Origin: Candidatus Omnitrophota bacterium
Lineage (GTDB): Bacteria > Omnitrophota > Gorgyraeia > Zapsychrales > Fredricksoniimonadaceae
Direction of reading: 5' to 3'
Assembly (NCBI GenBank): GCA_021731625.1
Contig: JAKFXC010000062.1
Span: forward strand, 4,479-68,478
DNA length: 64,000 nt
The position numbers were made by a program, and so were the translations under genes. Positions within the stretch are counted from its first letter, which is position 1; each line of letters begins with the position of its first letter. This document shows positions 13,049 through 44,007 of this stretch, piece by piece. Under the pieces are notes generated by a model. The model did no database searches. It saw nothing but the letters and a program-made list of their open reading frames with translations, and had not been told where the DNA came from.

Positions 13049-13511
13049 GAAGCGTCTTCTCATCATCGACGACGAGCCATTGATCCCGAATTTATTGAAG
13101 GAAATCATTGAGGCAGACCAGGACCTGGAAATTGCCGGGGTGGCCACCAGAAAAACGGAGTTCTTGGCAATGATTTGGAAGGAAGCTTTTGATGCCCTCC
13201 TCATAGATCTTTCCATTGAGGAACGGGAAGGCGGACTGAAGTTGCTTTCTGCGTTGCAGAAAGAAAAGATAGTCATCCCATCCATTGTGTTCTCAGCCCA
13301 TGACGAACAGGATTACGCCCTCAAATGTTTAAAATTTGGGGCCAAAGGTTACATCAGCAAAAATTCTTTGGTCCCAGACCTGATCAGGGGAGTCAAAGAG
13401 GTATTAAACGGCAATTTGTTTGTGTCCGGTGAAAGCGGCAAGTACATCCTGGACCAGTATAAGCAGCACCACGCCAAAATCTATTACAATCCTCCGCCAT
13501 CGTCTTTTTAA
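13038..13511 (+). CDS. Single-domain response regulator (CheY-like receiver)
   Basis: LLIIDDEPL acidic pocket, phospho-acceptor LIDLS, and T/K (SIVFSAH...KGYISK) motifs. Start ATG 13038 overlaps the PCD stop. Confidence 0.75.
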   Translation: MIFKKRLLIIDDEPLIPNLLKEIIEADQDLEIAGVATRKTEFLAMIWKEAFDALLIDLSIEEREGGLKLLSALQKEKIVIPSIVFSAHDEQDYALKCLKFGAKGYISKNSLVPDLIRGVKEVLNGNLFVSGESGKYILDQYKQHHAKIYYNPPPSSF

Positions 13512-13541
13512 TTTAATTTTCACATTCTTTTAATCGCCACC

Positions 13542-15416
13542 GTGTTAAAAAATCACATGCCTGTACCACCTCCACAAGCGTCTAAACAGCTGGGAGCCAA
13601 GGTCTTGAAGCAGGGGGTGTTTTTTAAAGTGTGGGCCCCCAGATGCAAGCAGGTGGACGTGCTTATCGAACGGCAGCGGCTCTCGCCATTTCGCCTGCGG
13701 TCCCACGCCAATGGTTTTCACAGCGGGTTGTTCCCCGGCTTGGAAGCTGGCGCGTTGTACAAATTCCGTCTGAACCATAAGCATTCTTATCCCGATCCGG
13801 TTTCCCGTTACCAACCTGAAGGGCCGCACGGGCCCTCGATGGTCATTGACCCTACGAGCTATCGTTGGAAAGATCAATCCTGGCAAAGAAAGGGCATCCG
13901 CCTCCAGGGGCAGGTGTTTTATGAGGTCCACGTTGGGGCATTTACCGCTGAAGGGACTTTTGCGGCCATGGTCGACCAACTGGCCGCACTTAAAAAACTG
14001 GGCATCACCGCCATTGAGTTGATGCCGCTGGCCGAGTTTCCCGGGCGGTGGAACTGGGGATATGACGGGGTCAATTTATTTGCCCCTGCCCATGTGTATG
14101 GGGCCCCGGATGATCTGCGCCGGTTGGTGGATGCCGCCCACCGGCAGGGGATGGCGATGGTCCTGGACGTGGTGTACAACCATTTTGGTCCCGACGGAAA
14201 TTATTTAAAATTTTTTAGCCCCGATTATTTTACCAGGCGTTACAAGACCGACTGGGGGGAGGCGATCAATTTTGACGGCAAGAATGCCGCCCAGGTCAGA
14301 CAATTTTTTTTACAGAATGCCGCGTATTGGATCAAGGAGTTTCATTTTGACGGGCTGCGCCTGGATGCCACCCAGAATATTTATGACCAGGGCAAACCGC
14401 ATATCCTGGCGGAAATCACTAAAACCGTCCGGGCCGCGGCCTCCCCGAAGAAAGTTTTGCTGATTGGGGAAAACGAACCTCAGGAAGTCCGTTTGCTTAA
14501 ATCTCCCGCTCAAGGCGGTTATGGTTTGGATTCGCTATGGAATGATGATTTTCACCACACGGCGTATGTGCGCATGACCGGCCGTCGGGAAGCCTATTAC
14601 ACCGACTATCTGGGGCACGCGCAAGAATTCATTTCCATGGTCAAGCGGGGATTTATGTACCAGGGCCAATTTTATTCCTGGCAAAACCAACCCCGGGGAA
14701 CATATGTGGACGACCAAATCCCGGCCAGCGCTTTTACGGTCTATTTGGAAAATCATGACCAAGTGGCCAATAGTTTATACGGCCTGCGGATGGCTCATCA
14801 AACGGATATTGCGCTGTACCGCGCGCTGACCGCTTTGTTCCTTTTGGGCCCTCAGACGCCGCTGATTTTTATGGGCCAAGAATTTGCGGCCTCGACGCCG
14901 TTTTTATTTTTCACCGACCATGACAAAGAGCTGGGTCCCCTGGTGTTTAAAGGCCGCAAAGAATTCTTGTGCCAGTTTCCCAGCATTGCGGCCGCCGTGC
15001 ATAAGGTCCAGGACCCTCAGGACGCCAAGGCTTTCACGGCCTGCAAATTGAAATTCGAAGAACGCCGCACCCACAAAGAAATTTATGCTTTGCATGCCGA
15101 TTTATTAAAAATCCGTCGGGAAGACGATGTCATCAAGCGTCAAGATCATCAAGCCATCGAGGGCGCGGTCTTTACCCAGGATGCGTTTGTGCTGCGGTAT
15201 AAACATAAGGAGGCGCATCGCTTGCTGGTGGTGAATTTCGGCGACGATGTGCATTTTGTCCCTGTCTGTGAATCTTTATTGGCCCCGTTGCCGCACAGGC
15301 CCTGGGCGTTTCTTTGGTCCAGCGAAGACCCCAAGTACGGGGGCCGCGGCAAAATTCAAGCCCTGACACAGAAAGGGTGGTCTATTCCGGGCCGCTGCGC
15401 CCAATTGTATGGTTGA
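13542..15416 (+). CDS. treZ: Malto-oligosyltrehalose trehalohydrolase (GH13)
   Basis: GVFFKVWAP N-domain; GH13 regions GFHFDGLRLDA, GENEP and NHDQV; ~620 aa; adjacent to treY/treX. Confidence 0.85.
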   Translation: MLKNHMPVPPPQASKQLGAKVLKQGVFFKVWAPRCKQVDVLIERQRLSPFRLRSHANGFHSGLFPGLEAGALYKFRLNHKHSYPDPVSRYQPEGPHGPSMVIDPTSYRWKDQSWQRKGIRLQGQVFYEVHVGAFTAEGTFAAMVDQLAALKKLGITAIELMPLAEFPGRWNWGYDGVNLFAPAHVYGAPDDLRRLVDAAHRQGMAMVLDVVYNHFGPDGNYLKFFSPDYFTRRYKTDWGEAINFDGKNAAQVRQFFLQNAAYWIKEFHFDGLRLDATQNIYDQGKPHILAEITKTVRAAASPKKVLLIGENEPQEVRLLKSPAQGGYGLDSLWNDDFHHTAYVRMTGRREAYYTDYLGHAQEFISMVKRGFMYQGQFYSWQNQPRGTYVDDQIPASAFTVYLENHDQVANSLYGLRMAHQTDIALYRALTALFLLGPQTPLIFMGQEFAASTPFLFFTDHDKELGPLVFKGRKEFLCQFPSIAAAVHKVQDPQDAKAFTACKLKFEERRTHKEIYALHADLLKIRREDDVIKRQDHQAIEGAVFTQDAFVLRYKHKEAHRLLVVNFGDDVHFVPVCESLLAPLPHRPWAFLWSSEDPKYGGRGKIQALTQKGWSIPGRCAQLYG

Positions 15417-17394
15417 ACCCATCTTAAATATTCCCATCAATCCGGATGATTCCATAGAACGCTTAAGCTCCAGAGAGTGGTTAGTCACTAATGGTCTGGG
15501 CGGATACGCGTCGGGGACCATAATGGGACTCAACACCCGCCGGTATCATGGGCTGTTTGTCCCCAATTTGTCCGCCCCTTTGGGCCGCACCATGATGCTG
15601 CCGTTTCTGGCCGAAGACGTCCTTTTTGATCAGCAAAAAGTCGCCCTGGGCGCCATCGAATACAAGGATGGCCATATGGACAGCAAGGGCAAACAATTCC
15701 TGCGGGAGTTTCGCCTCGAGTGGCTCACACCTACCTGGATCTACGACTTTAACGGCCACATTTTGGAAAAAAGAATTTTTATGCCGTTTGCCAAAAATAC
15801 GGTTTATGCGTCCTACCGGTTAAGCGGGGGGAGAGGGCCTGTACGTTTGCAGTTGAGGCCGTATTGTTCCTGCCGTGTCCATGATGGATCCTTGGGTTAT
15901 CCTCCGGATTGGCCGTTCACCGTCAAGATTGAGAAAGAGCGCTATGAGATTTCAGCCTTCGAGGGGGCGCCAGCCTTACGGTTGTCGATCGATCCGTTCA
16001 AAGGATTTTTTGTGGCGGAAGGCGATTGGTTAAAAAATGTTTTTTACCGTCTAGAATTGCAGAGAGGCCTGGACTGCGTCGAGAATATTCATAGCCCCGG
16101 ATTTTTTTCTTTTGAGCTGGAGGACAATGCCGAGATGTTTTTTATGGCCAGCAACGAAGGTTGGGATTCTCTGGTCCGAGACCCGGCGGACATTTTTGAT
16201 GAGGAACTGAAACGGCGTAAAAATACCGTGGCCCAGGCCCAAGGCGTTGTTCATCACCACGTCACCAGCCAACTGGCCCTGGCTGCCGACCAATTCATTG
16301 CTTTGCCCCGCACCCGGGATGAAAAAAATGCCCGCACGGTCATGGCCGGTTACCATTGGTTTACCGACTGGGGTAGGGACACTATGATCAGTTTGGAAGG
16401 ATTGACATTGTGCACCGGCCGTAAGGCCGAGGCCCGGAAAATTTTGGAGACGTTTTCGCACTATGTGCGCAACGGGCTGTTACCCAACCATTTTCCCGAG
16501 GGGGAGACGCATCCTATTTATAACACGGCCGACGCCACTTTTTGGTTTTTTCACGCCATTGACCGCTATGTCCATTACACCCATGATCGGGGCATGGTGG
16601 AGCAGCTGTATCCCATTTTAGAATCTATCATTGATTGGCATGTGCAGGGGACCGATTTCGGGATATATATGGACCCTGCCGACGGTTTGATCCACGCCGG
16701 GACCGAAGGCCAGCAATTGACTTGGATGGATGCCAAAGTGGATGATTGGGTGGTCACTCCCCGCCGGGGAAAGCCGGTAGAAATTCAGGGTCTGTGGTTT
16801 AATGCCTTGCGGTTGATGGAAATGTGGAGCCAGTGGTTAGGCAAACCTTCGGATAAATACGCCCAGCTGGCCGAAAGAACGTTTGAGTCCTTTCATCGGA
16901 TTTTTTGGTACAAGGAGGGGGGTTATCTTTATGACGTGGTCAACGACCACCATGGCAATGATCACTCCCTGCGGCCGAACCAGATATTTGCGTTGTCATT
17001 GCATTTTCCGTTGCTGCACAAAGACCGTTGGAAAAATGTGGTGGATATCGTTGAAGAAAAATTGCTTACGCCCTTTGGGCTTCGGACCCTGGATGCGGGC
17101 CACAAAGATTACCATGCCCGTTATGAAGGTAACCGTTACCAGAGGGACGGCGCCTATCACCAGGGACTGGTCTGGGCCTGGTTGATCGGCCCTTTTCTGG
17201 ATGCCTGGGAAAAGGTCTACCATGACCCCAACAAGGCGCGGGAATTCTTCAAGGCCTTTGAAACACATTTGAAAGAAGCCGGCATTGGCACCGTTAGTGA
17301 AATCTTTGATGGGGATTGGCCTTATCTTCCCCGGGGATGCATGGCCCAGGCCTGGAGTGTGGCTGAGGTGCTGCGTTCCTTCTTGCGCCTTTAA
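15409..17394 (+). CDS. Glycogen debranching enzyme, amylo-alpha-1,6-glucosidase type (GDE N-domain + GDE_C six-hairpin)
   Basis: N-terminal TNGLGGYASGT...RRYHGLF (GDE_N_bis-like) and catalytic GYHWFTDWGRDTMISLEGL. Confidence 0.75.
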   Translation: MVEPILNIPINPDDSIERLSSREWLVTNGLGGYASGTIMGLNTRRYHGLFVPNLSAPLGRTMMLPFLAEDVLFDQQKVALGAIEYKDGHMDSKGKQFLREFRLEWLTPTWIYDFNGHILEKRIFMPFAKNTVYASYRLSGGRGPVRLQLRPYCSCRVHDGSLGYPPDWPFTVKIEKERYEISAFEGAPALRLSIDPFKGFFVAEGDWLKNVFYRLELQRGLDCVENIHSPGFFSFELEDNAEMFFMASNEGWDSLVRDPADIFDEELKRRKNTVAQAQGVVHHHVTSQLALAADQFIALPRTRDEKNARTVMAGYHWFTDWGRDTMISLEGLTLCTGRKAEARKILETFSHYVRNGLLPNHFPEGETHPIYNTADATFWFFHAIDRYVHYTHDRGMVEQLYPILESIIDWHVQGTDFGIYMDPADGLIHAGTEGQQLTWMDAKVDDWVVTPRRGKPVEIQGLWFNALRLMEMWSQWLGKPSDKYAQLAERTFESFHRIFWYKEGGYLYDVVNDHHGNDHSLRPNQIFALSLHFPLLHKDRWKNVVDIVEEKLLTPFGLRTLDAGHKDYHARYEGNRYQRDGAYHQGLVWAWLIGPFLDAWEKVYHDPNKAREFFKAFETHLKEAGIGTVSEIFDGDWPYLPRGCMAQAWSVAEVLRSFLRL

Positions 17395-17477
17395 TTTTTT
17401 CTTAATGCTGCATTCATTTCGGTTCACATAGAATAAAGGTCCAAGCATTTAAAATTAGTTAATTTAGGAGATGAATT

Positions 17478-19937: not shown

Positions 19938-19938
19938 C

Positions 19939-22713: not shown

Positions 22714-22796
22714 GCAGTTTAATTTTAACTTCATCTTGTTTTAATTTTCATTTTGGTACAGTAGGTCAGCATTTTCATCCCTAAAGGAGAAACGCC

Positions 22797-23449: not shown

Positions 23450-23889
23450 AAAAACAACTCCTGACCACGGCGTTTTTTTTGCTGAGCGCGTTCTCCAAAA
23501 TGCGGGCGCGCACCTCACTCAAGGACATCGCTGGTCTTCGAATGAAACTGTTGTACCTCAAACTGATCAAGACCAGCCGCATGCTCTTTATCAGTTTTTT
23601 AGGGGTGGGGCTATGCCTGCTTTTTTTGTGTGCCGGTTTGGTCCTGGCGCATGTGGTCTTCTTTGCTTATATGCCCTGGAGCAATGAGGCCAAAATATGG
23701 GTAGGGTTTGCCATGTCCGCCATCTACGTCGGTGCGGCCGCATGGATCTTTAGCTATGTCTTTGATCAACACAAGTGGATAGCCATGTTTCAGGCTAATG
23801 GGCTGTTGGATAATATCGCCGGAGACATGCCCTATCCGCAGAACCATAAGAATCATAAAAGAGAACCGGTAGATAGTTCTGCCCTATGA
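23446..23889 (+). CDS. YqjE-like (phage-holin-3_6 superfamily) inner-membrane protein
   Basis: ATGA overlap with the DUF883 gene, mirroring E. coli yqjD-yqjE synteny; two long hydrophobic helices. Confidence 0.5.
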   Translation: MKKQLLTTAFFLLSAFSKMRARTSLKDIAGLRMKLLYLKLIKTSRMLFISFLGVGLCLLFLCAGLVLAHVVFFAYMPWSNEAKIWVGFAMSAIYVGAAAWIFSYVFDQHKWIAMFQANGLLDNIAGDMPYPQNHKNHKREPVDSSAL

Positions 23890-26237
23890 TCGGCAGCATA
23901 GAGGGCCTTATTCGATCAACCCGGCGGAGGCTCAATCGCAGCTATTGGGCCATTCGGCTGTTGGGGCTTTCTAAACTCGACCAGCCGATTCAGGCCCCCG
24001 GCCTGATCATGGTGCAGATTGACGGACTTTCCTTGACGCAGGTGCAAAACGCCATGCGTCAAGGAAATGTCCCTTTCTTAAGCCGCTTGCTTTCCCGCGA
24101 ATCCTACGTTCTGCACACTTTTTTTTCCGGCATTCCTTCCAATACCCCTGCGGTGCAAGCGGAAATTTTTTACGGCGTTAAGACCTGCGTGCCGTCATTT
24201 TATTTTATGGACCGGAGGTTGTGTCGTCCGGTGAAAATGCAGGATGCCGCTTATGTTGAACAATTTGAACAGAAGCTAAAGGAAAAGAATGCCGGGCTGC
24301 TCTCCGGCGGGAGTTCCTATAGCAATATTTTCACCGGTGGGGCTTCCGAAGCCCATTTTTGCTGGGCCCAATTAGGGTTCGGCGGTGTGTTGCACGCGGC
24401 CAACCCTTTGGTATTTCCCTTTTTATTTCTTTTATATATTGATATTTTTGTCCGCACGTTTGTTTTGCTCATCGTGGAATTCTTGATCGCTTTTTATGAA
24501 TGCATCCGGGGCACCCTGAAGGGCCGCTTGTTTTTTGAAGAGCTGCGCTTTGTCATGCTGCGGGTTTTGGTATGCATATTTCTGAGGGAACTGATCGTGG
24601 CCGGGGTCTGCATTGACATCATGCGGGGTTTACCGGTCATTCATTGTAATTTTCTGGGCTACGATGAGCAGGCCCATTGCCGGGGCCCATCGTCGCGTTT
24701 TGCCCACTGGGCTTTGCAAGGCATTGATGCTGCCATCAAACGCATTGACCACACCATGAAACAATCGCCTTACCGTGAATATGACCTCTGGGTGTACGGG
24801 GACCATGGCCAGGAAACCACCACCCCGTATTTTATCCGCTACGGCCGCACCATCGAAGAGGCGGTGCAGGAACTCTTTGGCAAGAATCTGGATCCGGTGG
24901 TGCGTCGCCGCAATTTGCGGCAGCACAATGCCGACGGACGGGCCGATTTATTGGTCAGTCGAAAAGACAAACCATTGCCCCGGGGGGAGCAGCCAGAGAT
25001 TTTAGTCACCGCCATGGGGCCTTTGGGGCAAATTTACGTGAAGAAAAAACTCAGTCAGGCAGAATTGGAATTTTTTGGCAATGAATTGGCGACTAAGCTG
25101 CATATCCCGCTGGTGGTGATCCGCCAAGGCCAAAAGCTCTTGGCGTACACCCCGCACGGGTCTTATACCTTGCCGGACCAAACCGCCTTAGTGTTTGGCG
25201 AGGATCATCCTTTTCTTGAGGACATTCAGGTCGATTTTATGACTGCATGTTTCCATCCGGATGCCGGCGAGTTCATTATTGCGGGGTGGAGCAAAGGCGA
25301 GTCGCCGATCAGCTTTCCTTTAGAGTATGGGGCCCATGCCGCCATGAGTGTTGAGGAAACCCGGGCTTTTGCCCTCATGCCGGTTGATGCCCCTTTAAAA
25401 TCCCGGTCTAAAAAATATCTCCGACCCCTGGATTTGCGGGACACCGCCCTGCGGTACCTTAATAAGGAAGTGATCGGGCCGGCAGCGGCGCCGGAGGAAG
25501 TGCCTGGGGTGCTGCGCCTCATGAGCTACAATGTGCACGGGTGCAAGGGCATGGATGGTTATCTGTCCACGGAACGCATCGCGCGGGTCATTGCCCGGCA
25601 CCGTCCTGATGTCATTGCCCTGCAGGAACTCGACGTCGGACGGGCCCGGTCCCAAGGCATGGACCAGGTCCAAAAGGTGGCCAAGTATCTCGAGATGAAG
25701 TATCATTTTCATCCTGTTCTCTGCCAGGAAGCCGAGCAATACGGCAATGCCATTTTAAGCCGGTACCCTGTGACCTTGATCAAAGTCGCGACCCTGCCCG
25801 GGCTTCATGATCAAGAACCTCGAGGGGCCATGTGGGTCCAAATAGAGTTTCAAAACATTGGTGTTCATGTGATTAACACCCATTTGAGTATTTGGCCGAG
25901 GGAACGGATGCTGCAGGTGAAAGCCCTTTTAAGCGAACAGTGGATAGGTCAGCACGACCATCGCACTCCTTTGGTTTTATGCGGAGATTTTAATGCCATG
26001 CCCGGATCATCTTCCTATAAACGGATTTGCCAAAAATTAAAGGATAGCCAGACCCTGCTGAACGGACATCAACCCTTCCGCACTTGGTTTGGTCGATACC
26101 CGGTGTCCCAGATCGACCACGTCTTTGTGAACCCTCAATTGAAGGTCCACGCCGCGTCTGTTCCCCACACCAGCCTCGATAAGGTGGCCTCGGACCACCT
26201 ACCGCTCATCGTCGACCTTAAGATGTATGTAAATTAA
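23886..26237 (+). CDS. Fusion phosphoesterase: N-terminal alkaline-phosphatase-like (type I phosphodiesterase/nucleotide pyrophosphatase) domain, internal TM segments, C-terminal endonuclease/exonuclease/phosphatase (EEP) domain
   Basis: AlkP-core motifs VQIDGLS, SGIPSNTP and VYGDHGQ. EEP motifs LRLMSYNVHG, IALQELD, VINTHLS, CGDFNAMPGS, DHVF, SDHLPL. Hydrophobic stretch at residues ~190-250. Confidence 0.65.
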   Translation: MIGSIEGLIRSTRRRLNRSYWAIRLLGLSKLDQPIQAPGLIMVQIDGLSLTQVQNAMRQGNVPFLSRLLSRESYVLHTFFSGIPSNTPAVQAEIFYGVKTCVPSFYFMDRRLCRPVKMQDAAYVEQFEQKLKEKNAGLLSGGSSYSNIFTGGASEAHFCWAQLGFGGVLHAANPLVFPFLFLLYIDIFVRTFVLLIVEFLIAFYECIRGTLKGRLFFEELRFVMLRVLVCIFLRELIVAGVCIDIMRGLPVIHCNFLGYDEQAHCRGPSSRFAHWALQGIDAAIKRIDHTMKQSPYREYDLWVYGDHGQETTTPYFIRYGRTIEEAVQELFGKNLDPVVRRRNLRQHNADGRADLLVSRKDKPLPRGEQPEILVTAMGPLGQIYVKKKLSQAELEFFGNELATKLHIPLVVIRQGQKLLAYTPHGSYTLPDQTALVFGEDHPFLEDIQVDFMTACFHPDAGEFIIAGWSKGESPISFPLEYGAHAAMSVEETRAFALMPVDAPLKSRSKKYLRPLDLRDTALRYLNKEVIGPAAAPEEVPGVLRLMSYNVHGCKGMDGYLSTERIARVIARHRPDVIALQELDVGRARSQGMDQVQKVAKYLEMKYHFHPVLCQEAEQYGNAILSRYPVTLIKVATLPGLHDQEPRGAMWVQIEFQNIGVHVINTHLSIWPRERMLQVKALLSEQWIGQHDHRTPLVLCGDFNAMPGSSSYKRICQKLKDSQTLLNGHQPFRTWFGRYPVSQIDHVFVNPQLKVHAASVPHTSLDKVASDHLPLIVDLKMYVN

Positions 26238-26331
26238 TCTTGTTTTCATGTTCTCTTAATGGTGGGATTGGTAAATTAATCCGCGTTTAGGAACGCAATC
26301 ACAGAGAAAACCAGCTAAAAAGGAGACTCAC

Positions 26332-27096: not shown

Positions 27097-27113
27097 TCAA
27101 ACGGAGAACATCA

Positions 27114-27251
27114 ATGCGGAACTTATTTGTTAAGTTAGTCGCCGTGGCCTTCATTGCCTCGATCGTTGGGTGCAATACGATGAAGGGGGCTGGCCAAGAT
27201 ATGGAACAAACCGGGAAAAACATCAAGGAAACCGTGGAGCATAACGATTAA
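27114..27251 (+). CDS. Entericidin A/B family small lipoprotein (45 aa)
   Basis: MRNLFVKLVAVAFIASIVGCNTMKGAGQDMEQTGKNIKE matches Ecn (lipobox VGC, NT.KG.G.D...G); RBS ggag. Not in the ORF track because it is under 60 aa. Confidence 0.6.
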   Translation: MRNLFVKLVAVAFIASIVGCNTMKGAGQDMEQTGKNIKETVEHND

Positions 27252-27269
27252 CCAATCAAGGAGGTACTT

Positions 27270-27437
27270 ATGTTAAGTTGGTCCATTAGCTTTTTATTGA
27301 TTGCCATCGTGGCAGCGTTTTTTGGGTTCGGCGGAATTGCGGGTACGGCCACCGAAATCGCCAAAGCATTGTTTGTAGTCTTTTTGGTCCTTTTCTTTAT
27401 TTCTTTGCTTTTAGGTCGACGCGTCCCATCGGTGTAA
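27270..27437 (+). CDS. UPF0391/DUF1328 small membrane protein (55 aa)
   Basis: [49 protein letters not shown] is the canonical family sequence; RBS aaggagg. Confidence 0.6.
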
Positions 27438-27522
27438 CGTCGCTCTCAAGATAACCGCCCGGATAGGTGAGGACATTCGCCGCGTTTAGCGGCGGTGCCT
27501 TGCCAAGGCGGAAGGGGGAACT

Positions 27523-34410: not shown

Positions 34411-34499
34411 CCTGCCGAGTTTAATATTCTATTAACCCAGCATTCATCTGCATTCCTCTATAATTTGATCAATGAGACACGCAAAAAAGAGAGGATGAT

Positions 34500-34826: not shown

Positions 34827-36602
34827 TACGCCATTATCGGCAATTGCACCACCGCTGCCCTGGTTAACGACGATTGTTCCATTGACTGGCTGTGCCTGCC
34901 TTTTTTTGACTCCCCGTCGATTTTTGCCCGTCTCCTGGACCAAAAAATAGGCGGCCATTTCAAGATTTGGGCCAAGGACGTGGTCAGTGTCGAGCAGGCC
35001 TACATCACCCATACTCCCATCTTAAAAACCATTTTCACCACCAAAGACGGCATTTTTGAGGTCCGCGATTACATGCCCCGCTTTGAACTCGCCGAAGGGG
35101 AGGTGTATTGCCCGTCCGAAATCCACCGCATCATCCGTCTGGTCCAGGGGAATCCAAAAATGACCGTTGAGCTTCAACCGCGCCCCAACTATGCCTTAAG
35201 CGAGGCGCACTTTGTCCATTCGAGCGAATATTTAAAAATCACCTCGATGAGCGGAGAGTACAACAGTTTTTATCTGTACTCGAATTTGAATCTCCACGAT
35301 GTCCTGAGTAATAAGGAAATGGAAATCAAGGAGTCATCCTATTTTTTATTGTCCTACCATGAGAAACTGGAAACGATAAACCCCGAAAAGATCCTGGTCG
35401 AGTATGAACGCACCAAGAGCCATTGGATGTACTGGGTGTACCGCACCAAAATTCCGGAGAGATACCGGGAAATGCTCATCCGTTCGATCATCACCTTAAA
35501 ACTCTTGATGTTCCAACGCACCGGCGCGGTGATTGCGGCCCCGACCACGTCTTTGCCTGAAATTATCGGGAAGGACCGCAACTGGGATTACCGTTATTGC
35601 TGGATGCGCGATTCAGCCATGATCATTTATCTATACACGCATTTGGGTCACGCGCGTTCCGCGTCCCGGTACATTTCATTCATTTTAAACCGGATGCTGC
35701 TTAAACATGAGGACATCGCGGTGATGTACGGCATCAACGGCGAACGCCTGCTGGAGGAGAGGGTCCTGGAGCATCTTAGCGGTTACGCAAATTCCCGCCC
35801 GGTGCGCGTGGGCAATGACGCCTATAGGCAAAAACAGAACGATGTGTACGGCGAATTGATTGAAACCATCTATGCGTTTTTTATTGCCAACCCTAAGGAG
35901 GTCATAGGGGTCAATGAGGAAATCTGGACCCTGGTGCGTTCCCTCGTCAATCGCGTGCTGGCCACCTGGCGAGACCCTGACAGCGGCATTTGGGAGAGGC
36001 GGGGGCCCATGCGGCATTTTGTGCATTCCAAACTGATGAATTGGGTGGCCATGGACCGGGCCGCCAAAATCGCGCAATTCGTCGGGAAAACCCGGTATGT
36101 GCCGGGGTATCTAAAAGTGGCGGATGAAATCAAGGACGATATTTTAAAAAATGGATGGAACCAGGACCAGCAAAGTTTTATGATGTATTATGGAGGAGGG
36201 GAGCTGGATGCTTCCAGCCTTTTGATGTTGCACTACGGCTTTTTGGACCGCAAAGACCCCCGCATGGTCAGCACCGTGCAGACCTTGCACCGGGAATTGA
36301 CCAGGGAAGGATTTGTGTTGCGTTACAAAGCTGCGGATGAGTTTGGGGTTCCGGAAAACGCCTTCATTGTGTGCACTTTTTGGATGATCAATGCCCTCTA
36401 TTTAATTGGGCAAGAACAGCAGGCCAGAGTCATGCTAGAAAAAATGATTTCCTTCGCGAACAAATTCGGACTTTATTCCGAAGACATTGAGCCGGCCACC
36501 GGGCGTTTGACCGGAAATTTTCCCCAGGGGTATTCGCATCTGGCCTTCATCCAAACTATTTTTTTGCTGGAAACCCAATACGACTGGAGCGATGCGGCCT
36601 AA
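34827..36602 (+). CDS. Glycoside hydrolase family 15 (glucoamylase/trehalase-type); true start lies upstream of the annotated ATG 34980 and is non-canonical or disrupted
   Basis: The conserved GH15 N-terminus YAIIGNCTTAALVNDDCSIDWLCLPFFDSPSIFARLLD is encoded from 34827, in frame with the 34980 ORF. There is no ATG/GTG/TTG between the upstream stop (34752) and this motif. The catalytic region SLPEIIGKDRNWDYRYCWMRDSA is present. Confidence 0.7.
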   Translation, partial: YAIIGNCTTAALVNDDCSIDWLCLPFFDSPSIFARLLDQKIGGHFKIWAKDVVSVEQAYITHTPILKTIFTTKDGIFEVRDYMPRFELAEGEVYCPSEIHRIIRLVQGNPKMTVELQPRPNYALSEAHFVHSSEYLKITSMSGEYNSFYLYSNLNLHDVLSNKEMEIKESSYFLLSYHEKLETINPEKILVEYERTKSHWMYWVYRTKIPERYREMLIRSIITLKLLMFQRTGAVIAAPTTSLPEIIGKDRNWDYRYCWMRDSAMIIYLYTHLGHARSASRYISFILNRMLLKHEDIAVMYGINGERLLEERVLEHLSGYANSRPVRVGNDAYRQKQNDVYGELIETIYAFFIANPKEVIGVNEEIWTLVRSLVNRVLATWRDPDSGIWERRGPMRHFVHSKLMNWVAMDRAAKIAQFVGKTRYVPGYLKVADEIKDDILKNGWNQDQQSFMMYYGGGELDASSLLMLHYGFLDRKDPRMVSTVQTLHRELTREGFVLRYKAADEFGVPENAFIVCTFWMINALYLIGQEQQARVMLEKMISFANKFGLYSEDIEPATGRLTGNFPQGYSHLAFIQTIFLLETQYDWSDAA

Positions 36603-37273: not shown

Positions 37274-37391
37274 CCAATCCCTCGACTTAAAAATTTTTAA
37301 TTTACGATTCATGTTCTCTTCATTTTTATTTTAGTACGATAACATCCATAGTTCGCAAACAACCCCGTCCTTACTAGGGAAAGGAGTAGTC

Positions 37392-37628
37392 ATGAGAAAG
37401 AATATCCACCAAAGGAAATGGCAGCAGGATCGATCGGCAGCGGAATTGTTCCCCACACAGCAGAAAGACGATGATGATATTTTCGCGTCCCGCTACGCCA
37501 ACAACGATCCTCTGGAGCCGCAGGATTTGCAATTGCCGTATTACAGCTATACAGATGAGGCAGACTTTTTAGAAGGCAAAGTCACCACCTATGTCAGCTT
37601 TCCCTGGGAGGACGATGAAGAGGAATAG
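37392..37628 (+). CDS. Small acidic hypothetical protein
   Basis: ORF with a strong downstream intrinsic terminator; highly acidic C-terminus (WEDDEEE). Confidence 0.35.
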   Translation: MRKNIHQRKWQQDRSAAELFPTQQKDDDDIFASRYANNDPLEPQDLQLPYYSYTDEADFLEGKVTTYVSFPWEDDEEE

Positions 37629-37653: not shown

Positions 37654-37683
37654 GGCCGGTCTGTCCAAGACCGGCCTTTTTTT
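37654..37683 (+). terminator. Rho-independent terminator (ggccggtc-tgtccaa-gaccggcc + T7)
   Basis: Perfect 8-bp GC stem and a 7-T tract. Confidence 0.75.
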
Positions 37684-37685
37684 GA

Positions 37686-37725
37686 CATGAAAATATTTTC
37701 ATGAAGAATTCATGTCCGGTTCATG
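37686..37725. promoter_or_regulatory. 18-bp perfect palindrome CATGAAAATATTTTCATG followed by three TTCATG direct repeats at 11-bp phasing (37698, 37709, 37720); candidate response-regulator operator upstream of the RR/HK pair
   Basis: Seen in the sequence. The direct-repeat spacing equals one helical turn, as in OmpR/PhoB-family sites. Confidence 0.4.
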
Positions 37726-37891
37726 GCGGATGTGATAAATCTATTCAACTTCATGTGTAAGTGTCTTAGTCTTCACCGGTTGCGGCACAATCAACAGCGT
37801 TGGGGACGTCAAACGATAACCATTGACAATTTTTTGTTTCAGGACTAAAGTTTCCTATTAACGGAAATGTACCCCAAGCGGAGGAGAATAC

Positions 37892-38560
37892 ATGCGCATC
37901 TTAGTCATAGATGATGAAAAAAGGGTGACTGGCTTTATTGCCCGTGGTTTGAAAGAGCGCCATTATGTGGTGGATGTGGCCAACGACTCTCAGGAAGCCC
38001 AGGAAAAGGCCGAAATTAACCCATATGACCTGATTATTCTCGATATCCTTATGCCTGACAAGGACGGGATCTCTATTTGCAGAGAGTTGAGAAAGAACAA
38101 AATCGCCACCCCTATTTTGATGCTGACGGCCCGCAGCGGGGTCAGGGACAAGGTGCGGGGTTTGGACGTGGGGGCGGACGATTATTTGACCAAGCCGTTT
38201 GTCTTTGATGAGCTCTTGGCCAGAGTCAGGGCCTTGTTGCGCCGCGAAGTTAAAGAAAAACAGAATATGTTGCGAGTTGCCGACCTCGAACTCAACCAAT
38301 TGACGAGGGAAGTTAAACGCCAGGACAGGGCCATTACCTTGACCAGCAAAGAATACGCGTTGCTGGAATATTTTATGTTGAATGCCAATGAAGTCATCAC
38401 CCGCACCATGATTTCCGAGCATGTTTGGCAGGAGGATTTCGATAGTTTCACCAATGTCATTGACGTCTATGTCAAACATTTGCGGGACAAGATTGACCGG
38501 GGGTTTGGTAGTTCCTTGATCCAGACCATTCGAGGCACCGGTTATATCCTTAAAGAATGA
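37892..38560 (+). CDS. OmpR-family winged-helix response regulator (CusR/CopR-like)
   Basis: REC domain (DD...D53 ILD, T/K) plus Trans_reg_C; the C-terminal IQTIRGTGYIL resembles the heavy-metal RR subgroup. Confidence 0.85.
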   Translation: MRILVIDDEKRVTGFIARGLKERHYVVDVANDSQEAQEKAEINPYDLIILDILMPDKDGISICRELRKNKIATPILMLTARSGVRDKVRGLDVGADDYLTKPFVFDELLARVRALLRREVKEKQNMLRVADLELNQLTREVKRQDRAITLTSKEYALLEYFMLNANEVITRTMISEHVWQEDFDSFTNVIDVYVKHLRDKIDRGFGSSLIQTIRGTGYILKE

Positions 38561-40104
38561 AGGCATCCTTTTTATCCTCACCGCTCAAAAGTTTAGCAGC
38601 CGCCATTAAATTCAATTCTATCAAGTTCAAGTTCAGCGTGCTCTACACGGTTATCCTGGGCATCATCTTGGTGGTTTTTAGTGTGGTGTTGTATGCCATC
38701 CTCGCTTTTTACCTCTATCAAAATATTGACTTCAGCTTAAAGCTCAAGGCCCGGGAAGTCATGGCCGCAATTGAAAATTATGCTTCACTCGGCGACAAAC
38801 CCCAGGTCTTGGATGCGGCGGTCAAGAAAACGCTGCTTTATCCGGTGGAGAATTTTCCGGTGGGCATGTTTGAGCAGGGCAAGCTCAAGCGCCTGGAAAC
38901 CAAGTGGGAGGAACGGGCCGATGCCATGCGTTTAAGCGACACGGTTATCGCCTTCATTTCGCTGCAGCCGACCCGCGCCATCAAAAGTCGGAATTTTCCC
39001 GCCAAAATGGTCCCTCAATTCGTCACCCTGGCACAACTGTCGATGGGCAGCAAACAGCCGATGTTTTATAACCAGCGGTTTAGCGGGAATGCGTACCGGG
39101 TGATCGCGGTTCCCTATGCTCGGGAAGGCCAGCGAGTTTCGGTCTTAACCATAGGCACGTCTTTAAAACCGATTGAACGCGTGCTGGGCAGCTTTTTGCA
39201 AGCCACCGGTTTGGGGATCCCGCTGGTCTTGATCCTGACCAGTTTTGTGGGGCTATTTTTTGTCAAACGGCTGCTGGGCCCCATCGAGGAAATCGCCCGC
39301 ACCGCCAACCGCATCACCCACGAAGACCTGGACGCGCGCATCAAAACCGAACACTTAGATAGCGAAATTGAATATCTAGTGGGTTCGTTTAATGACATGA
39401 TCGGGCGGCTGGAACGTTCCTTCACCCACATCAATGAATTCAGCTCCCAGGTGGCGCATGAACTCAAAACGCCCTTGGCCATCATTAAAGGCGAGTCGGA
39501 GCTGGCACTGGGGCAGCCCCGCGACGTGGATGAGTACCGTTCCACCATCCGCATCAATATGGAGGAGGCCAGCCGCATGCGCAAGACCATTGAAGACCTC
39601 TTGCTGCTGGCCCGGCTAGACTACCATCCGGAGGGTTTTAATTTTCAGAGTTTTGACTTTGTGGAATTTTTCCGCGAGATTTGCGAGCAGACCGAAATCC
39701 TGGCCGCCGATAAGGGCCATCAGATCAAGGCCGTGTTGCCGGACAGCAAAATCCTCATCACTGCGGACAAACTGCATTTGCGGCGGATGTTTTTTAACAT
39801 CATCGACAATGCGCTAAAGTACACTTTGCCGCCGGGGGAGATTAAGCTGCAGGTGGCCTGCAAAAGAAAAAAAATCCTGGTTTTGATCTCTGACAACGGG
39901 GTGGGCATTCCCGCCCAGGACATTTCCAAAATTTTTGACAAATTTTACCATTCCGACCGCACCGGACAAAATGAGTTCCGCAGCAATGGTTTGGGCCTCA
40001 GCATTGTGCACTCCATTTTGAAAATCCACCATGGCCAGGTGAGGGTCACCAGCCGCATCAACCAGGGGACCACCTTTCACATCATGCTTCCCGCACAGCT
40101 TTGA
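38557..40104 (+). CDS. Sensor histidine kinase (heavy-metal sensor kinase architecture: 2 TM + periplasmic loop + HAMP + HisKA + HATPase_c)
   Basis: H-box SQVAHELKTPL, N/G boxes IIDNALKY, DNGVGI and GLGLSIV. Confidence 0.85.
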   Translation: MKASFLSSPLKSLAAAIKFNSIKFKFSVLYTVILGIILVVFSVVLYAILAFYLYQNIDFSLKLKAREVMAAIENYASLGDKPQVLDAAVKKTLLYPVENFPVGMFEQGKLKRLETKWEERADAMRLSDTVIAFISLQPTRAIKSRNFPAKMVPQFVTLAQLSMGSKQPMFYNQRFSGNAYRVIAVPYAREGQRVSVLTIGTSLKPIERVLGSFLQATGLGIPLVLILTSFVGLFFVKRLLGPIEEIARTANRITHEDLDARIKTEHLDSEIEYLVGSFNDMIGRLERSFTHINEFSSQVAHELKTPLAIIKGESELALGQPRDVDEYRSTIRINMEEASRMRKTIEDLLLLARLDYHPEGFNFQSFDFVEFFREICEQTEILAADKGHQIKAVLPDSKILITADKLHLRRMFFNIIDNALKYTLPPGEIKLQVACKRKKILVLISDNGVGIPAQDISKIFDKFYHSDRTGQNEFRSNGLGLSIVHSILKIHHGQVRVTSRINQGTTFHIMLPAQL

Positions 40105-40223
40105 TGTATTTATATTATTAAAATAAATTAATTTTAATTTCACGTTTTGTTCATACCTCCCTTGGTATCTTTAATACGCCAGCTGACGTGCATTTGACAT
40201 TGTCATAACTAAGGTAAAATATC

Positions 40224-40577
40224 ATGAAAAAAGTACTCATTGTGGAGGACGAACAGAGGATCACCGACATCTATTTGCGTTTACTGGTGCCGGCGGGCTA
40301 TATTGTCCGCTGCGCCAATAATGCGCAGGCTGCCACCAGCATCTTGGTCAGGGAAAACATTGACCTGGTCTTGCTGGACATTAAGATGCCGAAAATCAAC
40401 GGCCAAAAGATATTTGAAATCATCGAAGAGTATAACCCTGACATTAAAGTCATTGTCAGCAGTGTGTATCCGGTCGAGAAGCAGAAGGAGTTGCTGCCGC
40501 AGGCGGAGAATTATTTTGACAAATCCGAAGGTCCCATGAACCTTTTGGCCAAAGTCCAGCATGCTTTGGCAGGCTGA
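40224..40577 (+). CDS. Single-domain response regulator (receiver only)
   Basis: VLIVEDE, LLDIKMP and VIVSS motifs; 117 aa. Confidence 0.75.
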   Translation: MKKVLIVEDEQRITDIYLRLLVPAGYIVRCANNAQAATSILVRENIDLVLLDIKMPKINGQKIFEIIEEYNPDIKVIVSSVYPVEKQKELLPQAENYFDKSEGPMNLLAKVQHALAG

Positions 40578-43110
40578 AACGTCTCGTCTCATGTTTAAAA
40601 AAATCATTCTTACCCAATCCTCACGTGTGTTCCCCACCGTAGATCCTCGCCGGGTGTACGATGTTTTGCGCATCCTGGCGCTGGCCTGGCTCTATTATGT
40701 GGCAGCGATGTGGAGTCTTCAGTTTGCCTTTAAAGAAACCAATGCCTCGCCGGTGTGGTTGCCGTCGGGCATTGCCTTTACTGGCCTGCTGATTTTTGGT
40801 TTCCAGCTGTGGCCGGGCATTTGGCTGGGGGCGTTCCTGGCCAATCTGCATATTTCTTTAGCCAGCCACTTTTTGACAGTCCCCGCCGCTTCGTTTGTGC
40901 TGGCCTTTCTCATCGCCTGGGGCAACACCGCCGAAGCCGTGTTGGGGGTATTTTTACTCAACACGCTGATTGGACGCCGCCTGCCCCGCTTTCGCATCCC
41001 GCACATTCTTAAATTGGCCGGCGTGATTCTGGTCGCCGCTTTAGTCAGCGCCTCGGTGGGGGTGACGGCGGTTAGTTTATTCAAAAGTTTTCCGCCGGCG
41101 GAATATCAGACGATGTGGTACGTGTGGTGGATGGGCGATGTCTTAAGTATTTTGATTTTGACCCCGCTGTTTTTGGCGGCCCGCTATGCGCCGCTGAAAA
41201 TCCAGTCGGCCAAACGTTTTGTGGAGACATTGGCCATGCTGGTGGTCATTGCTTTGGTCAACAGCGTCATTTTTGGCACCAAGCCGGGGATCAATACGCC
41301 GTTTTTTCCAACCATCTATTTGAGTTTACCGATCATGGTGTGGTCCACCTATCGCTTCGGGTATTGGGGGACCATTGCCACGTCGTTTATCACTTTGGTT
41401 TGCGGATTGCAGGGGACCACCAATGGGCTGGGTCCCTTTGTCAGCGCTGATCCGGTGTTGTCGATGCTGCTGTTGCAGTCGTTTGTCGGCATCTTGACGT
41501 TGACAGGGCTGGTTTTGGCCGTGGCGTTGAATGAACGGGAGCGGGCGGAAGAGGAAGTGCGGCGGGGGAGTCTGAGGTTTCAGGGTCTAGTGGAAAACAG
41601 CCAGGATATGATTGTGCTCATGGACGACCAGGCCAGGGTAACTTACATCAGTCCGTCGGTGACTAAAATGCTGGGCTATTCGCTGGAGGAATTTCGTGAT
41701 TACATGGCCTATGTCCATCCCGGGGACAATGCGTATGTGCAGGGTCGGCTAGGCCAAGCTCTTGCCGCCACCGGAAACATCGTGGACGGCCAATGCCGCT
41801 TCCGTCACAAGAACGGGGATTGGCGGTGGATCGAAGGCACGGGCCACAATTTATTGCATGACCCGGCCATGCGCGCGGTGGTTTTCAATTACCGCGACAT
41901 CACGCACCGCAAGGAATGGGAAGAGGACCAGCAGCGCTCGAAATTATCTTTGCAGGAAAGTGAACAGCGGTTCCGATCCATGGCCGACACCGCTCCGGTC
42001 ATGATCTGGATGTCCGGGGCGGACATGATCTGCACGTTTTTTAACCAGGAATGGCTGGATTTCCGGGGCCAAAGCATGGAAGAAGAGTTGGGACACGGCT
42101 GGATCCAGGGCCTTTTCCCCGACGACATCAAGCGCTGCTGGACCCAGTATATGAAATCCTTCAAGGCCCATGAAAAATTCACCATGGACTACCGCCTGCG
42201 CCGGGCCGACGGGAACTACCGATGGATTCTAGCCACCGGCGTGCCGCGCTTTACGGCGGACGGTCATTTTTCCGGGTTCATCGGTTCCTGCATCGACATC
42301 ACCGAGCGCAAATTGGCCGAGGAAGTCTTAAAACGGGACAAAGAAAGCCTGGAGCAGCTCGTCGATGAACGTTCCCGGCAGTTGGTCCAGACCCAGCAGG
42401 AACTCAAACACGCAAGCCGTCTGGCGGACATCGGAACTTTGGCCGCCACCGTGGCCCATGAATTGCGCAACCCGCTGGGGGTCATCCACATGGCGGCCTA
42501 TAATTTGAAACGCAAGAACCAAAATTTCGAGAATGACAAACACCTCATCAACATCGAGAAAAAAGTCTGGGAGGGCAATCGCATCATTGACAATTTGCTC
42601 AGTTATTCGCGCATCAAAATCCCTTCCTATGAGCAGGTGCCGCTCAACAGCCTCATTGAGGAATGCATCGGCGTCACCCGCAGCAAATTCCACGACCATG
42701 ACATCATCATCAAAAAGGAGTACCAGGCCCCGGCGATCAACTTCATTGAGGCAGACCCGCACCAGATGAGGGAAGTGTTTGTTAATATTTTAAACAATGC
42801 CTGCCAGGCCTTCCCAAATAAAACCGGGCAGGTAGAAATCCTGGCCCGGGCTGAAGACTCAAATCAAGTGCGGGTGGTTTTTAAAGACAATGGGGCCGGC
42901 ATTGAGCAGGAAGACTTACAAAAAGTTTTTGAGCCGTTTTTTACCCGTAAGTCCAAGGGGACCGGACTTGGCTTGACGATTTGTAATGAGCTGGTGACCC
43001 TTCACCACGGCAAAATTGAAATTGCCAGCCGCACCGGGGAAGGCACCAGCGTTAACGTGATTTTGCCGATCAGCCGGAGGCATAGTGAACAAGAGGTTGC
43101 TCATCATTGA
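40561..43110 (+). CDS. Hybrid-type sensor histidine kinase with N-terminal MASE1 membrane domain, two PAS domains, HisKA and HATPase_c
   Basis: MASE1-like 7-TM N-terminus (LAWLYYVAAMWSLQFAF...), PAS repeats (DWRWIEG.., NYRWILAT..), H-box VAHELRNPL, G-boxes DNGAGI and GTGLGL. Confidence 0.8.
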   Translation: MLWQAETSRLMFKKIILTQSSRVFPTVDPRRVYDVLRILALAWLYYVAAMWSLQFAFKETNASPVWLPSGIAFTGLLIFGFQLWPGIWLGAFLANLHISLASHFLTVPAASFVLAFLIAWGNTAEAVLGVFLLNTLIGRRLPRFRIPHILKLAGVILVAALVSASVGVTAVSLFKSFPPAEYQTMWYVWWMGDVLSILILTPLFLAARYAPLKIQSAKRFVETLAMLVVIALVNSVIFGTKPGINTPFFPTIYLSLPIMVWSTYRFGYWGTIATSFITLVCGLQGTTNGLGPFVSADPVLSMLLLQSFVGILTLTGLVLAVALNERERAEEEVRRGSLRFQGLVENSQDMIVLMDDQARVTYISPSVTKMLGYSLEEFRDYMAYVHPGDNAYVQGRLGQALAATGNIVDGQCRFRHKNGDWRWIEGTGHNLLHDPAMRAVVFNYRDITHRKEWEEDQQRSKLSLQESEQRFRSMADTAPVMIWMSGADMICTFFNQEWLDFRGQSMEEELGHGWIQGLFPDDIKRCWTQYMKSFKAHEKFTMDYRLRRADGNYRWILATGVPRFTADGHFSGFIGSCIDITERKLAEEVLKRDKESLEQLVDERSRQLVQTQQELKHASRLADIGTLAATVAHELRNPLGVIHMAAYNLKRKNQNFENDKHLINIEKKVWEGNRIIDNLLSYSRIKIPSYEQVPLNSLIEECIGVTRSKFHDHDIIIKKEYQAPAINFIEADPHQMREVFVNILNNACQAFPNKTGQVEILARAEDSNQVRVVFKDNGAGIEQEDLQKVFEPFFTRKSKGTGLGLTICNELVTLHHGKIEIASRTGEGTSVNVILPISRRHSEQEVAHH

Positions 43111-43465
43111 CGATGACGAAGAGCTGTGTATGGAGCTTAAAGAGATTTTAGGCGACGAGGGGTACGAGGTGCACGTGGCCATGGACGGGTTTAAGGCCAC
43201 CGCTCTTATAGAACGTGACCAATATGCCGTGATCATTTTGGACCTTAAGCTGCCGAAAATGAACGGATATCAAGTATTGGAAACCGTCAAGCGCCGGGCC
43301 CCGAACCTTAAAGTCATTGTGTTGTCCGGACGCCCGATGGGAGAAACGGCCTTAAACAACACAGCCGATCCCGAGGTGGAAAAGTCGCTGCAATTCGCCG
43401 ATGCGGTCATGAATAAGCCGGTACTCATTCCGGTATTGGTGAAAGAGATTAAGAAATACGCCTAA
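43085..43465 (+). CDS. Single-domain response regulator (GTG start)
   Basis: LLIIDDDEEL, ILDLKLP and VIVLSG motifs; 126 aa. Confidence 0.75.
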   Translation: MNKRLLIIDDDEELCMELKEILGDEGYEVHVAMDGFKATALIERDQYAVIILDLKLPKMNGYQVLETVKRRAPNLKVIVLSGRPMGETALNNTADPEVEKSLQFADAVMNKPVLIPVLVKEIKKYA

Positions 43466-43490
43466 CGAACGCAAAAATAAGGAGAATCCT

Positions 43491-43919
43491 ATGTTCACCA
43501 AAGATTTTGCCGTCGACCATCCCAGGATCATGATTGTAGATGACAATGTGGAGTTTTTAGAGGAATTGGAAGAAATCCTCTCTCAAAGCGGATACGACAC
43601 CCAGACGCTGCCGGACAGCACCAAAGCGTTGGAGCTGGCCAATGAAACCAATCCAGACCTTATCCTGCTGGATTTGAAGATGAGCCCCAAAAGCGGCTTT
43701 CAATTGGCGGACCAATTGCGGCATTCGGAGAAAATGAAGGATGTCCCGATTGTGGCCATGACGGGGTTTTTTACCGAGCAAGAGCATGTGCTCATGATGA
43801 AACTTTGCGGCATCCGGAATTTTATCCTTAAACCTTTTATGCCGCTTAATTTGATCGCCAAAATTGAATTCGCGCTGGGCCGGCGTCCTTCGAATGAATT
43901 TGACGAAGACACCACGTGA
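43491..43919 (+). CDS. Single-domain response regulator
   Basis: IMIVDDN, LLDLKMS and IVAMTG motifs; 142 aa. Confidence 0.75.
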   Translation: MFTKDFAVDHPRIMIVDDNVEFLEELEEILSQSGYDTQTLPDSTKALELANETNPDLILLDLKMSPKSGFQLADQLRHSEKMKDVPIVAMTGFFTEQEHVLMMKLCGIRNFILKPFMPLNLIAKIEFALGRRPSNEFDEDTT

Positions 43920-44007
43920 AGTTTTTTTAATGGTATATTCATGCCCTCTTCACATGGGGTTTAGTAATCTACATCCAGTAGATTCACTTAAAACTAACGG
44001 GAGGGCC

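Follow-up and report, generated by a model that had tools for sequence, protein, structure and literature searches.

The pmra-box consists of two XTTAAY hexamers with 5 nt between them, stands in place of the -35 element, and is bound by a PmrA dimer that contacts the sigma-70 holoenzyme; PhoB occupies positions -41 to -25 at pstS (PMC10570014). Pho boxes of E. coli lie 10 bp upstream of a TAN3T -10 element, and cyanobacterial SphR needs at least three tandem 8+3-bp Pho-box units with the consensus CTTAACCT (PMC1906773). The putative site of Synechocystis CopR is TTCAT-N4-5-TTCAT (PMC4182526), and regulators of the CusR/AgrR type are type II activators with boxes near -35, to which some operators add further direct repeats in phase (PMC7380067). 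Here, we describe a family of 12 three-repeat sites in a 64-kb stretch of DNA from a Candidatus Omnitrophota bacterium (contig JAKFXC010000062.1; hereafter the window, to which all coordinates refer), together with the genes for a response regulator (RR) of the OmpR/PhoB family and its cognate sensor histidine kinase (HK), which lie in the same window. Our reading of the sequence, which we hold to be probable, is that the repeats mark promoters without a -35 element that would be driven by this RR (37892-38560) with its kinase (38557-40104) and that would make up a stress regulon.

Repeat family and promoter geometry

The family pattern is TTMAY-N6-TTMAY-N6-TTMAY, followed at a fixed offset by a -10-like TAnnnT that frequently has the TG of an extended -10. 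The repeat portion (TTMAY-N6-TTMAY-N6-TTMAY) was found 12 times on the + strand and not once on the - strand of the window. The null for motif counts, 200 shuffles that preserved dinucleotides, gave a mean of 0.01 per strand. The pair TTCAY-N6-TTCAY occurred 5 times versus 0.34 expected, and TTCAY pairs at N3-N5 or N7-N9 spacing stayed at the background level of the shuffles, so that N6 alone was enriched in the window. The sites start at 1186, 11753, 12252, 13508, 17391, 22719, 26234, 34421, 37297, 37698, 40128, and 43927. All of them lie in gene-upstream DNA, 34-194 bp from the next + strand start codon. Each contains the pentamer TT[A/C]A[C/T] three times, with starts exactly 11 bp apart. 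Repeat 1, at about -50, is nearly always TTAAT and is the most conserved element of the matrix described below; repeats 2 and 3 are TTCAT, TTAAT, TTCAC, or TTAAC, and TTAAT is the commonest pentamer across the 12 sites. The spacers are pyrimidine-rich, giving a repeating unit of approximately TTMATcTTcTt. A 46-nt scoring matrix of about 36 bits, derived from the 12 sites, produced a bimodal distribution, with scores of 34-52 at the sites and of 12 or less elsewhere on both strands of the window. These results confirm that the motif is non-random and that the sites form one 12-member family.

The 12 sites were chosen by their repeats alone, without reference to a -10 element. In the alignment, TA was present at positions 39-40 in 11 sites and T at position 44 in 10, and TAnnnT started 11 nt after repeat 3 in 11 of the 12. 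A TG at the extended -10 position (-15/-14) was seen in half of the sites (6/12). If TAnnnT is taken as the predicted -10, the pentamers fall at about -50/-46, -39/-35, and -28/-24, with centres near -48, -37, and -26. No match to a -35 element was detected at any of the 12 sites, and a sigma-70 consensus scan called none of them. Canonical sigma-70 promoters were nevertheless found in the window, namely TTGACA-N17-TAAAGT at 37823-37851, immediately before the RR gene, and TTGACA-N16-TATAAT at 61349-61376. Because the sites lack a -35 element while TTGACA/TATAAT-type promoters occur elsewhere in the window, the motif does not appear to be a generic promoter. It is also missing from the intergenic regions 502-631, 7188-7256, 8405-8547, and 45856-45930 and from all of 46-64 kb. 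Most likely, the motif represents a class of activator-dependent promoters without a -35 box.

The sites share two features with promoters of the Pho-box and pmra-box type, namely tandem repeats spaced by one helical turn and the replacement of the -35 element by repeats that end about 10 bp before the predicted -10. They resemble the PmrA/BasR promoters of Enterobacteria in the 11-bp period, in the replaced -35, and in the orientation of the repeats towards the -10. In contrast to those promoters, there are three repeats here and not two, TTCAT alternates with TTAAT, and the predicted targets are stress-protection genes instead of lipopolysaccharide-modification genes. Repeats 2 and 3, predicted at -39 to -24, occupy a position like that of PhoB at pstS. 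The likeness to the Pho boxes of PhoB and SphR extends to tandem direct repeats, an 11-bp period, a distance of about 10 bp to a TAN3T -10, and the lack of a -35 element. Unlike in the Pho regulon, the RR is not a PhoB orthologue (see below), and no phosphate-acquisition genes (pst, phoA/X/D, or phoU) were found among the genes downstream of the 12 sites.

The original prediction had described TTCATG-type half-sites in direct repeat and had listed seven sites. All seven were present and fell within the 12-site family, to which five further sites could be added. The strings at 43938-43954, 40139-40155, 17413-17428, and 34443-34464 were exactly where they had been placed, as was one copy of the 13-mer TTCATGTTCTCTT at 37308-37320. 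Two coordinate sets were slightly off: the other copy of TTCATGTTCTCTT lies at 26245-26257 and not at 26246-26258, and TTCACA-N5-TTAATC before treZ lies at 13519-13535 and not at 13510-13526. By itself, the 13-mer was only weakly significant (5 matches with at most 2 mismatches versus 1.5 expected). What had been listed as half-sites were mostly repeats 2 and 3; neither the TTAAT repeat upstream of them nor the fixed -10 had been noticed. The proposed one-helical-turn direct-repeat geometry was borne out in a stricter form, in that the period is exactly 11 bp, the repeats number three, and the -10 lies at a fixed distance, and an OmpR/PhoB-type reading of the repeats is supported. A generic -35/-10 consensus, which had been named as grounds for rejecting the idea, did not account for sites that have no -35 match and are absent from the sigma-70 scan calls. 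The label "osmotic/envelope-stress regulon" is a guess from gene content.

The candidate regulator and alternative readings

The RR, which is the proposed binder of the repeats, consists of a REC domain and a winged-helix Trans_reg_C domain (Pfam), and the HK has a HAMP-HisKA-HATPase architecture (Pfam); both genes are on the + strand. When the RR was compared with NCBIfam, the best model was the heavy-metal RR family TIGR01387 (253 bits, under the cutoff of 279.2), followed by CusR/CopR, RppA (212 bits), HprR, PmrA, and PhoB. With 201 bits against the PhoB model TIGR02154 (cutoff 296.2) and 201.9 bits against the PmrA model NF007928 (cutoff 330), the RR is assigned to neither orthologous group. 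The HK scored 267.6 bits against TIGR01386 (cutoff 292.55) in an alignment that begins at residue 146 and leaves the N-terminal sensor region uncovered. Thus, neither protein reached the cutoff of the heavy-metal subfamily (TIGR01387/TIGR01386), although these were the nearest families. The solved structures nearest to the DNA-binding domain of the RR are those of PcoR, DrrD, M. tuberculosis PhoP, and CovR, with the common recognition helix "TNV(I/V)DV"; the helix of the RR, "TNVIDV", is common to PcoR and CovR. Named homologues of the RR (66-83% identity) and of the thiamine pyrophosphate (TPP) enzyme encoded downstream of one of the sites (70-76%) came almost all from Candidatus Omnitrophica/Omnitrophota metagenome-assembled genomes (MAGs).

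The site of CopR is comparable in that the TTCAT pentamer is arranged as a direct repeat, and the heavy-metal subfamily is the best-scoring one for the RR. However, the spacing here is N6, three units are present, both proteins are under the subfamily cutoffs, the sensor region of the HK is not CusS-like, and the regulon holds no metal efflux or oxidase genes. Genes for CopA, CusCBA, or a multicopper oxidase were not found downstream of the sites, and the CDF gene at 10878 has no site. The CusR/AgrR regulators belong to a related RR subfamily, and there is a palindrome, CATGAAAATATTTTCATG, present once and located upstream of the RR gene; on the other hand, the core site of AgrR is the inverted repeat ATKACANNNNTGTMAT, whereas the motif described here is strictly a direct repeat. 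The palindrome (37686-37703) is a perfect 18-bp element that recalls the inverted-repeat boxes of CusR/AgrR-type regulators. It overlaps repeat 1 of site 37698 and directly follows a hairpin at 37654-37676.

Nine genomes were sampled via RR orthologues, namely the one containing the window and those represented by the loci L028, L030, L032, L154, L155, L156, L157, and L158. In eight of the nine, a strong site directly flanked the RR-HK operon (orthologues 67-80% identical). This site was located between the HK stop codon and the next gene, usually one for a single-domain REC protein, in seven genomes and in the divergent region upstream of the RR gene in one (L157). In L155, L156, L157, and L158, the flanking site was the sole strong site in approximately 20 kb. 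As each locus has about 12-17 sizeable intergenic regions, the chance that all four sole sites would adjoin the operon is roughly estimated at 1e-4 to 1e-3. The most conserved placement was that of site 40128, with orthologous sites in L028, L030, L154, L155, L156, L158, and L120. Likewise, the sole sites in approximately 60 kb of non-stress DNA of related contigs were those flanking the regulator operon. Sites that the matrix or the pattern picked out beyond the window carry a bias towards the model, whereas the window statistics and the adjacency counts in RR-ascertained loci are unbiased. The RR had already been named as a candidate regulator in the original prediction and now gains strong comparative support from the adjacency of the sites to its operon; we consider that it is quite probably the binder of the repeats.

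Strong sites with the same -10 offset numbered five in L028/29, two each in L030/31, L154, and L159, and one each in L155, L156, L157, L158, and L160. Those on the - strand precede - strand genes (L028 17304 and L157 9791). L160 and the RR locus L156 are separate contigs of one assembly, and the site in L160 lies before a DUF892 gene; the predicted regulon is therefore not confined to the neighbourhood of the regulator. A DNA-pattern scan of metagenomes yielded, among the matches listed, mostly AT-rich chance hits, and only hits with a GC content of at least 0.41 and a high matrix score were kept. Among the matches listed, sites found in this way preceded homologues of genes present in the window, namely the DUF892 (L125), 3xBON (L111), REC (L120), and TM7S3-like (L050) genes. 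Two of these loci, L120 and L050, encode RR-HK orthologues (64-65% identity) ending just before the motif, and in L038, also among the matches listed, a weaker match begins 6 bp after the end of the HK C-terminus.

In almost all of the genomes sampled, the RR-HK operon is followed, mostly as the next gene, by one that encodes a single-domain receiver protein of about 115-160 aa (L028, L030, L154, L155, L156, L158, L120, and 40224-40577 in the window). Because the receiver gene is the most constant target of the motif, this arrangement suggests that the protein could be a built-in feedback or phosphate-sink branch of the two-component system.

Since the geometry matches -35 replacement of the OmpR/PhoB type and the sites of related RR families are similar, we propose that the phosphorylated RR would bind head-to-tail on the 11-bp-phased repeats. 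The bound RR would then recruit or re-position a sigma-70-type holoenzyme, in the manner of PhoB at Pho boxes and of PmrA at pmra-boxes, and the activated promoters would rely on an extended -10 instead of a -35 element. The three repeats might be filled by a dimer and a further subunit, or by two dimers using the degenerate tTTGg at positions 34-38. We infer the binding protein, activation as opposed to repression, the transcription starts, and the inducing signal.

Several points weigh against this proposal. The motif precedes the RR gene itself in only 2 of 11 loci (37698 in the window and 9917 in L028), with an ordinary promoter in the others; site 37698 could possibly mediate positive autoregulation of the RR gene, but autoregulation through the motif was rejected as a general rule. 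In L032/L033, where the RR is 77% identical, there was no site in 20 kb. Three repeats are odd for a dimer; were the degenerate tTTGg counted as a fourth, it would overlap the extended -10. The -10 and every position relative to +1 are predictions, and the pattern-found sites give no independent support for the -10 because the search pattern contained it. Finally, the adjacency would also fit the neighbouring REC gene being a conserved target of some other regulator.

The last point leads to the possibility that a different OmpR/PhoB-type regulator encoded elsewhere, either a true PhoB/SphR-like protein or another RR, binds the repeats and that the RR-HK-REC cluster is only a conserved member of its regulon. 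The cyanobacterial Pho boxes, with three tandem CTTAACCT units at an 11-bp period, are very similar to the sites described here (PMC1906773). A phosphodiesterase/Exo_endo_phos gene lies in the gene island, the motif seldom precedes the RR gene, and L032 has the RR without a site. We nevertheless regard this explanation as improbable: pst, phoA, or phoU-type genes were not among the targets, the site adjoins the RR-HK operon in nearly all RR-ascertained genomes and is the only strong one nearby in four of them, the pattern-only hits L050 and L120 (among the matches listed) also adjoin RR-HK orthologues, and no second DNA-binding RR was found in the window or in the related loci.

An alternative sigma factor could instead recognize a promoter with a -35 of TTCAYG and a -10 of TTRGTA at a spacing of 17 nt or similar, with no activator required. 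Exact TTCAYG-N17-TTRGTA did occur 4 times, all on the + strand, versus 0.01 expected, and the gene content is like that of sigma-S or sigma-B general-stress regulons. The predicted targets parallel the E. coli RpoS regulon in particular, with osmY, trehalose synthesis, a poxB-like TPP enzyme, an aldB-like dehydrogenase, yciE/F-type DUF892 genes, and mscS, and this likeness supports a role in stress protection. In contrast to the sigma-S regulon, control here apparently runs via a two-component activator and repeat operators and not via a sigma-specific -10. The TTCAYG/TTRGTA pattern was rejected, as TTRGTA fits only 5 of the 12 sites, whereas the alignment shows a TAnnnT four bases further downstream in 11. 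Given this -10, TTCAYG sits 21 nt upstream, too far for a -35 element. A two-element promoter would have a 16-18 nt spacer and no further repeats, whereas the pentamers are found 21 and 11 nt before the -10, with a third at about -50. Three equally conserved pentamers at an exact 11-bp period, with the best conserved of them, repeat 1, near -50, are unlike sigma recognition, and no sigma factor gene was found in the window. Control by an alternative sigma factor is therefore judged quite unlikely. That the motif reflects only a generic lineage-specific promoter or UP-element architecture of phased A/T tracts, with no regulon specificity, is very improbable. In its favour, the repeats are A/T-rich, and between 1 and 46 kb the motif is found at roughly every second start of a transcription unit. 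Against it, other intergenic regions of the window lack the motif (some having canonical sigma-70 promoters), 46-64 kb is site-free, 20 kb of L032 contain no site, and the single site in each of L155-L158 is in every case beside the RR-HK operon.

Individual sites, predicted targets, and neighbouring features

The genes downstream of the 12 sites, all of which are on the + strand, appear to form a stress-protection set comprising trehalose synthesis and turnover, OsmY-like BON proteins, the TPP enzyme, an aldehyde dehydrogenase (ALDH), a DsbA-like protein, MscS, small acidic and secreted proteins, and a second signalling module made up of REC proteins and a MASE1-PAS kinase. The treZ-, treY-, and glgX-like genes and GH15 are counted towards trehalose synthesis and turnover. 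The first site (1186-1229; TTAAT-N6-TTAAC-N6-TTCAT; score 37.6) has a weak predicted -10, GAAGCT, after TG and precedes a DsbA-like thioredoxin gene at 1267-1812 (Pfam). Site 11753-11796 (TTAAT/TTCAT/TTAAT; -10 TAGACT; score 43.3) lies before a GYD-domain gene at 11821-12099 (Pfam). It is followed by site 12252-12295 (TTAAT in all three repeats; -10 TAGACT; score 49.5), which precedes an open reading frame (ORF) for a small secreted protein at 12331-12756 and then a REC gene at 12969-13511. The string TTTAAT-N11-TAGACTAAC at 11775 and 12274 was considered as a second motif and was rejected, being merely repeat 3 and the -10 of these two sites.

Two sites precede genes predicted to function in trehalose synthesis. 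Site 13508-13551 (TTAAT/TTCAC/TTAAT; TG-extended -10 TAAAAA; score 44.0) lies before treZ-like and debranching enzyme (GDE) genes (Pfam), and site 17391-17434 (TTAAT/TTAAT/TTCAT; -10 TAGAAT; score 43.5) lies before a small ORF at 17478, a glgX-like gene at 17880, and a treY-like gene at 19939 (Pfam). The predicted -10 of the treZ site (13546-13551) is past the GTG at 13542 that opens the longest ORF. Because it lies 5 nt before the ATG at 13557, the treZ mRNA may be leaderless or near-leaderless.

Site 22719-22762 (TTAAT/TTCAT/TTAAT; TG-extended -10 TACAGT; score 50.0) precedes the ORF at 22797, which opens a + strand gene run extending through the phosphodiesterase/Exo_endo_phos gene at 23886-26237 (Pfam). 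The highest score, 51.7, was obtained for site 26234-26277 (TTAAT/TTCAT/TTAAT; TG-extended -10 TAAATT), before the 3xBON OsmY-like gene at 26332 (Pfam). The + strand run after the 3xBON gene continues to 34410 and contains short ORFs, a second BON gene, a 749-aa ORF, and genes for a GT4 protein, the TPP enzyme, and the ALDH. Next, site 34421-34464 (TTAAT/TTAAC/TTCAT; -10 TATAAT; score 37.4) precedes a small ORF at 34500 and a GH15 gene at 34980-36602 (Pfam).

The remaining sites surround the two-component system. Site 37297-37340 (TTAAT/TTCAT/TTCAT; -10 TACGAT; score 48.0) lies before a gene for a small acidic protein (37392-37628), which ends at the hairpin at 37654-37676, a terminator-like structure. 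The acidic protein had no Pfam or NCBIfam match. Its C-terminal signature, DFLxGK..WE(D/E)EE, was also found in L125 and L065 (among the matches listed), in each case downstream of a motif site, so that three different genomes share this arrangement; the ORFs in these two loci lie 88 nt downstream of the sites. Site 37698-37741 (TTCAT in all three repeats; TG-extended -10 TAAATC; score 34.4) is 194 bp before the RR gene. Site 40128-40171 (TTAAT/TTCAC/TTCAT; TG-extended -10 TATCTT; score 42.2) is located between the HK stop codon and a single-domain REC gene. The + strand genes after it (40224-43919; Pfam) encode a REC-only protein (40224-40577), a MASE1-PAS histidine kinase (40561-43110), and, at 43085-43465 and 43491-43919, two more REC-only proteins. 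The last site (43927-43970; TTAAT/TTCAT/TTCAC; -10 TAATCT; score 40.4) precedes a lipoprotein-like gene starting at about 44008, which is followed by genes for a TM7S3-like membrane protein (44322) and an MscS-like protein (45295-45855; Pfam).

The relatives retrieved by a search of genome contigs with the BON protein were all distant (61% identity or less) and belonged to other phyla, and the protein turned out to be, as judged from these matches, widely transferred. The 26 loci of other phyla recovered in this way (about 450 kb) were used as negative controls, and the matrix maximum in them was 14.8. A megablast search for plasmid matches to 26000-30000 found none. A different recurrent motif, GGT[AC]GGGTTACACCCCATRG, was observed in loci of Verrucomicrobia/Lentisphaerae-type MAGs that encode an OsmY-like BON protein. 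It occurs at 8806, 9158, 9885, and 11225 in L004; at 9260, 9511, and 9910 in L005; at 1288 and 1513 in L009; at 6226 and 9847 in L024; and at 9866 in L006, 1046 in L007, 581 in L025, and 1116 in L002. There are several copies per locus, one of them situated about 90-160 bp upstream of the BON gene, and the motif has the look of a comparable promoter or operator of a stress regulon, here in another phylum.

Some other features of the window were also recorded. The only tandem array is a perfect repeat of TACCTGCTGA (3.2 copies) at 45860-45891, in the intergenic region before the ORF at 45931-46185. The stretch 46227-58063, which contains no motif sites, has a GC content of 0.45-0.48, versus approximately 0.50-0.55 over most of the remaining window. 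Encoded in it are an 827-aa protein that matched no family, an SNF2-type protein of 1546 aa that is weakly similar to ZorD/DpdE, and a nucleotidyltransferase of the AbiEii-like kind; the stretch may be an acquired defence island. Coding-like stretches outside the retained ORF set, at 4031-4504, 10436-10877, and 53348-54801, may be pseudogenes, frameshifts, or assembly errors. Behind the promoter at 61349-61376, a single ORF (61420-63129; 569 aa) has a MarR domain at its N-terminus and an outer-membrane efflux (OEP) domain at its C-terminus; either this is an uncommon fusion, or a GTG start further upstream has made one ORF out of two genes.

Implications for Candidatus Omnitrophota

To our knowledge, Candidatus Omnitrophota has no cultured representative, and a literature search for transcriptional regulation in this group found nothing. 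The motif offers a sharp promoter code, worth about 36 bits, that is linked to a single two-component system, and regulons could therefore be predicted directly from MAGs. It also provides a concrete candidate for how these bacteria may turn on trehalose synthesis, OsmY-like proteins, and mechanosensitive channels, and the motif sites are ready-made DNA probes for in vitro work with the recombinant regulator. No new principle is involved, as this kind of promoter and operator is already well known; the sites would extend -35 replacement of the PhoB/PmrA type to another phylum. A wider proposal, which we put forward only tentatively and hold to be rather doubtful, is that, throughout Omnitrophota, a general stress, osmoprotection, or desiccation response has this CusR/PmrA-like two-component system as its master switch. 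If this were true, the system would hold the place that sigma-S, sigma-B, or EcfG has in other phyla, and a simple code of three 11-bp TTMAT repeats and an extended -10 would make the whole regulon readable from MAGs.

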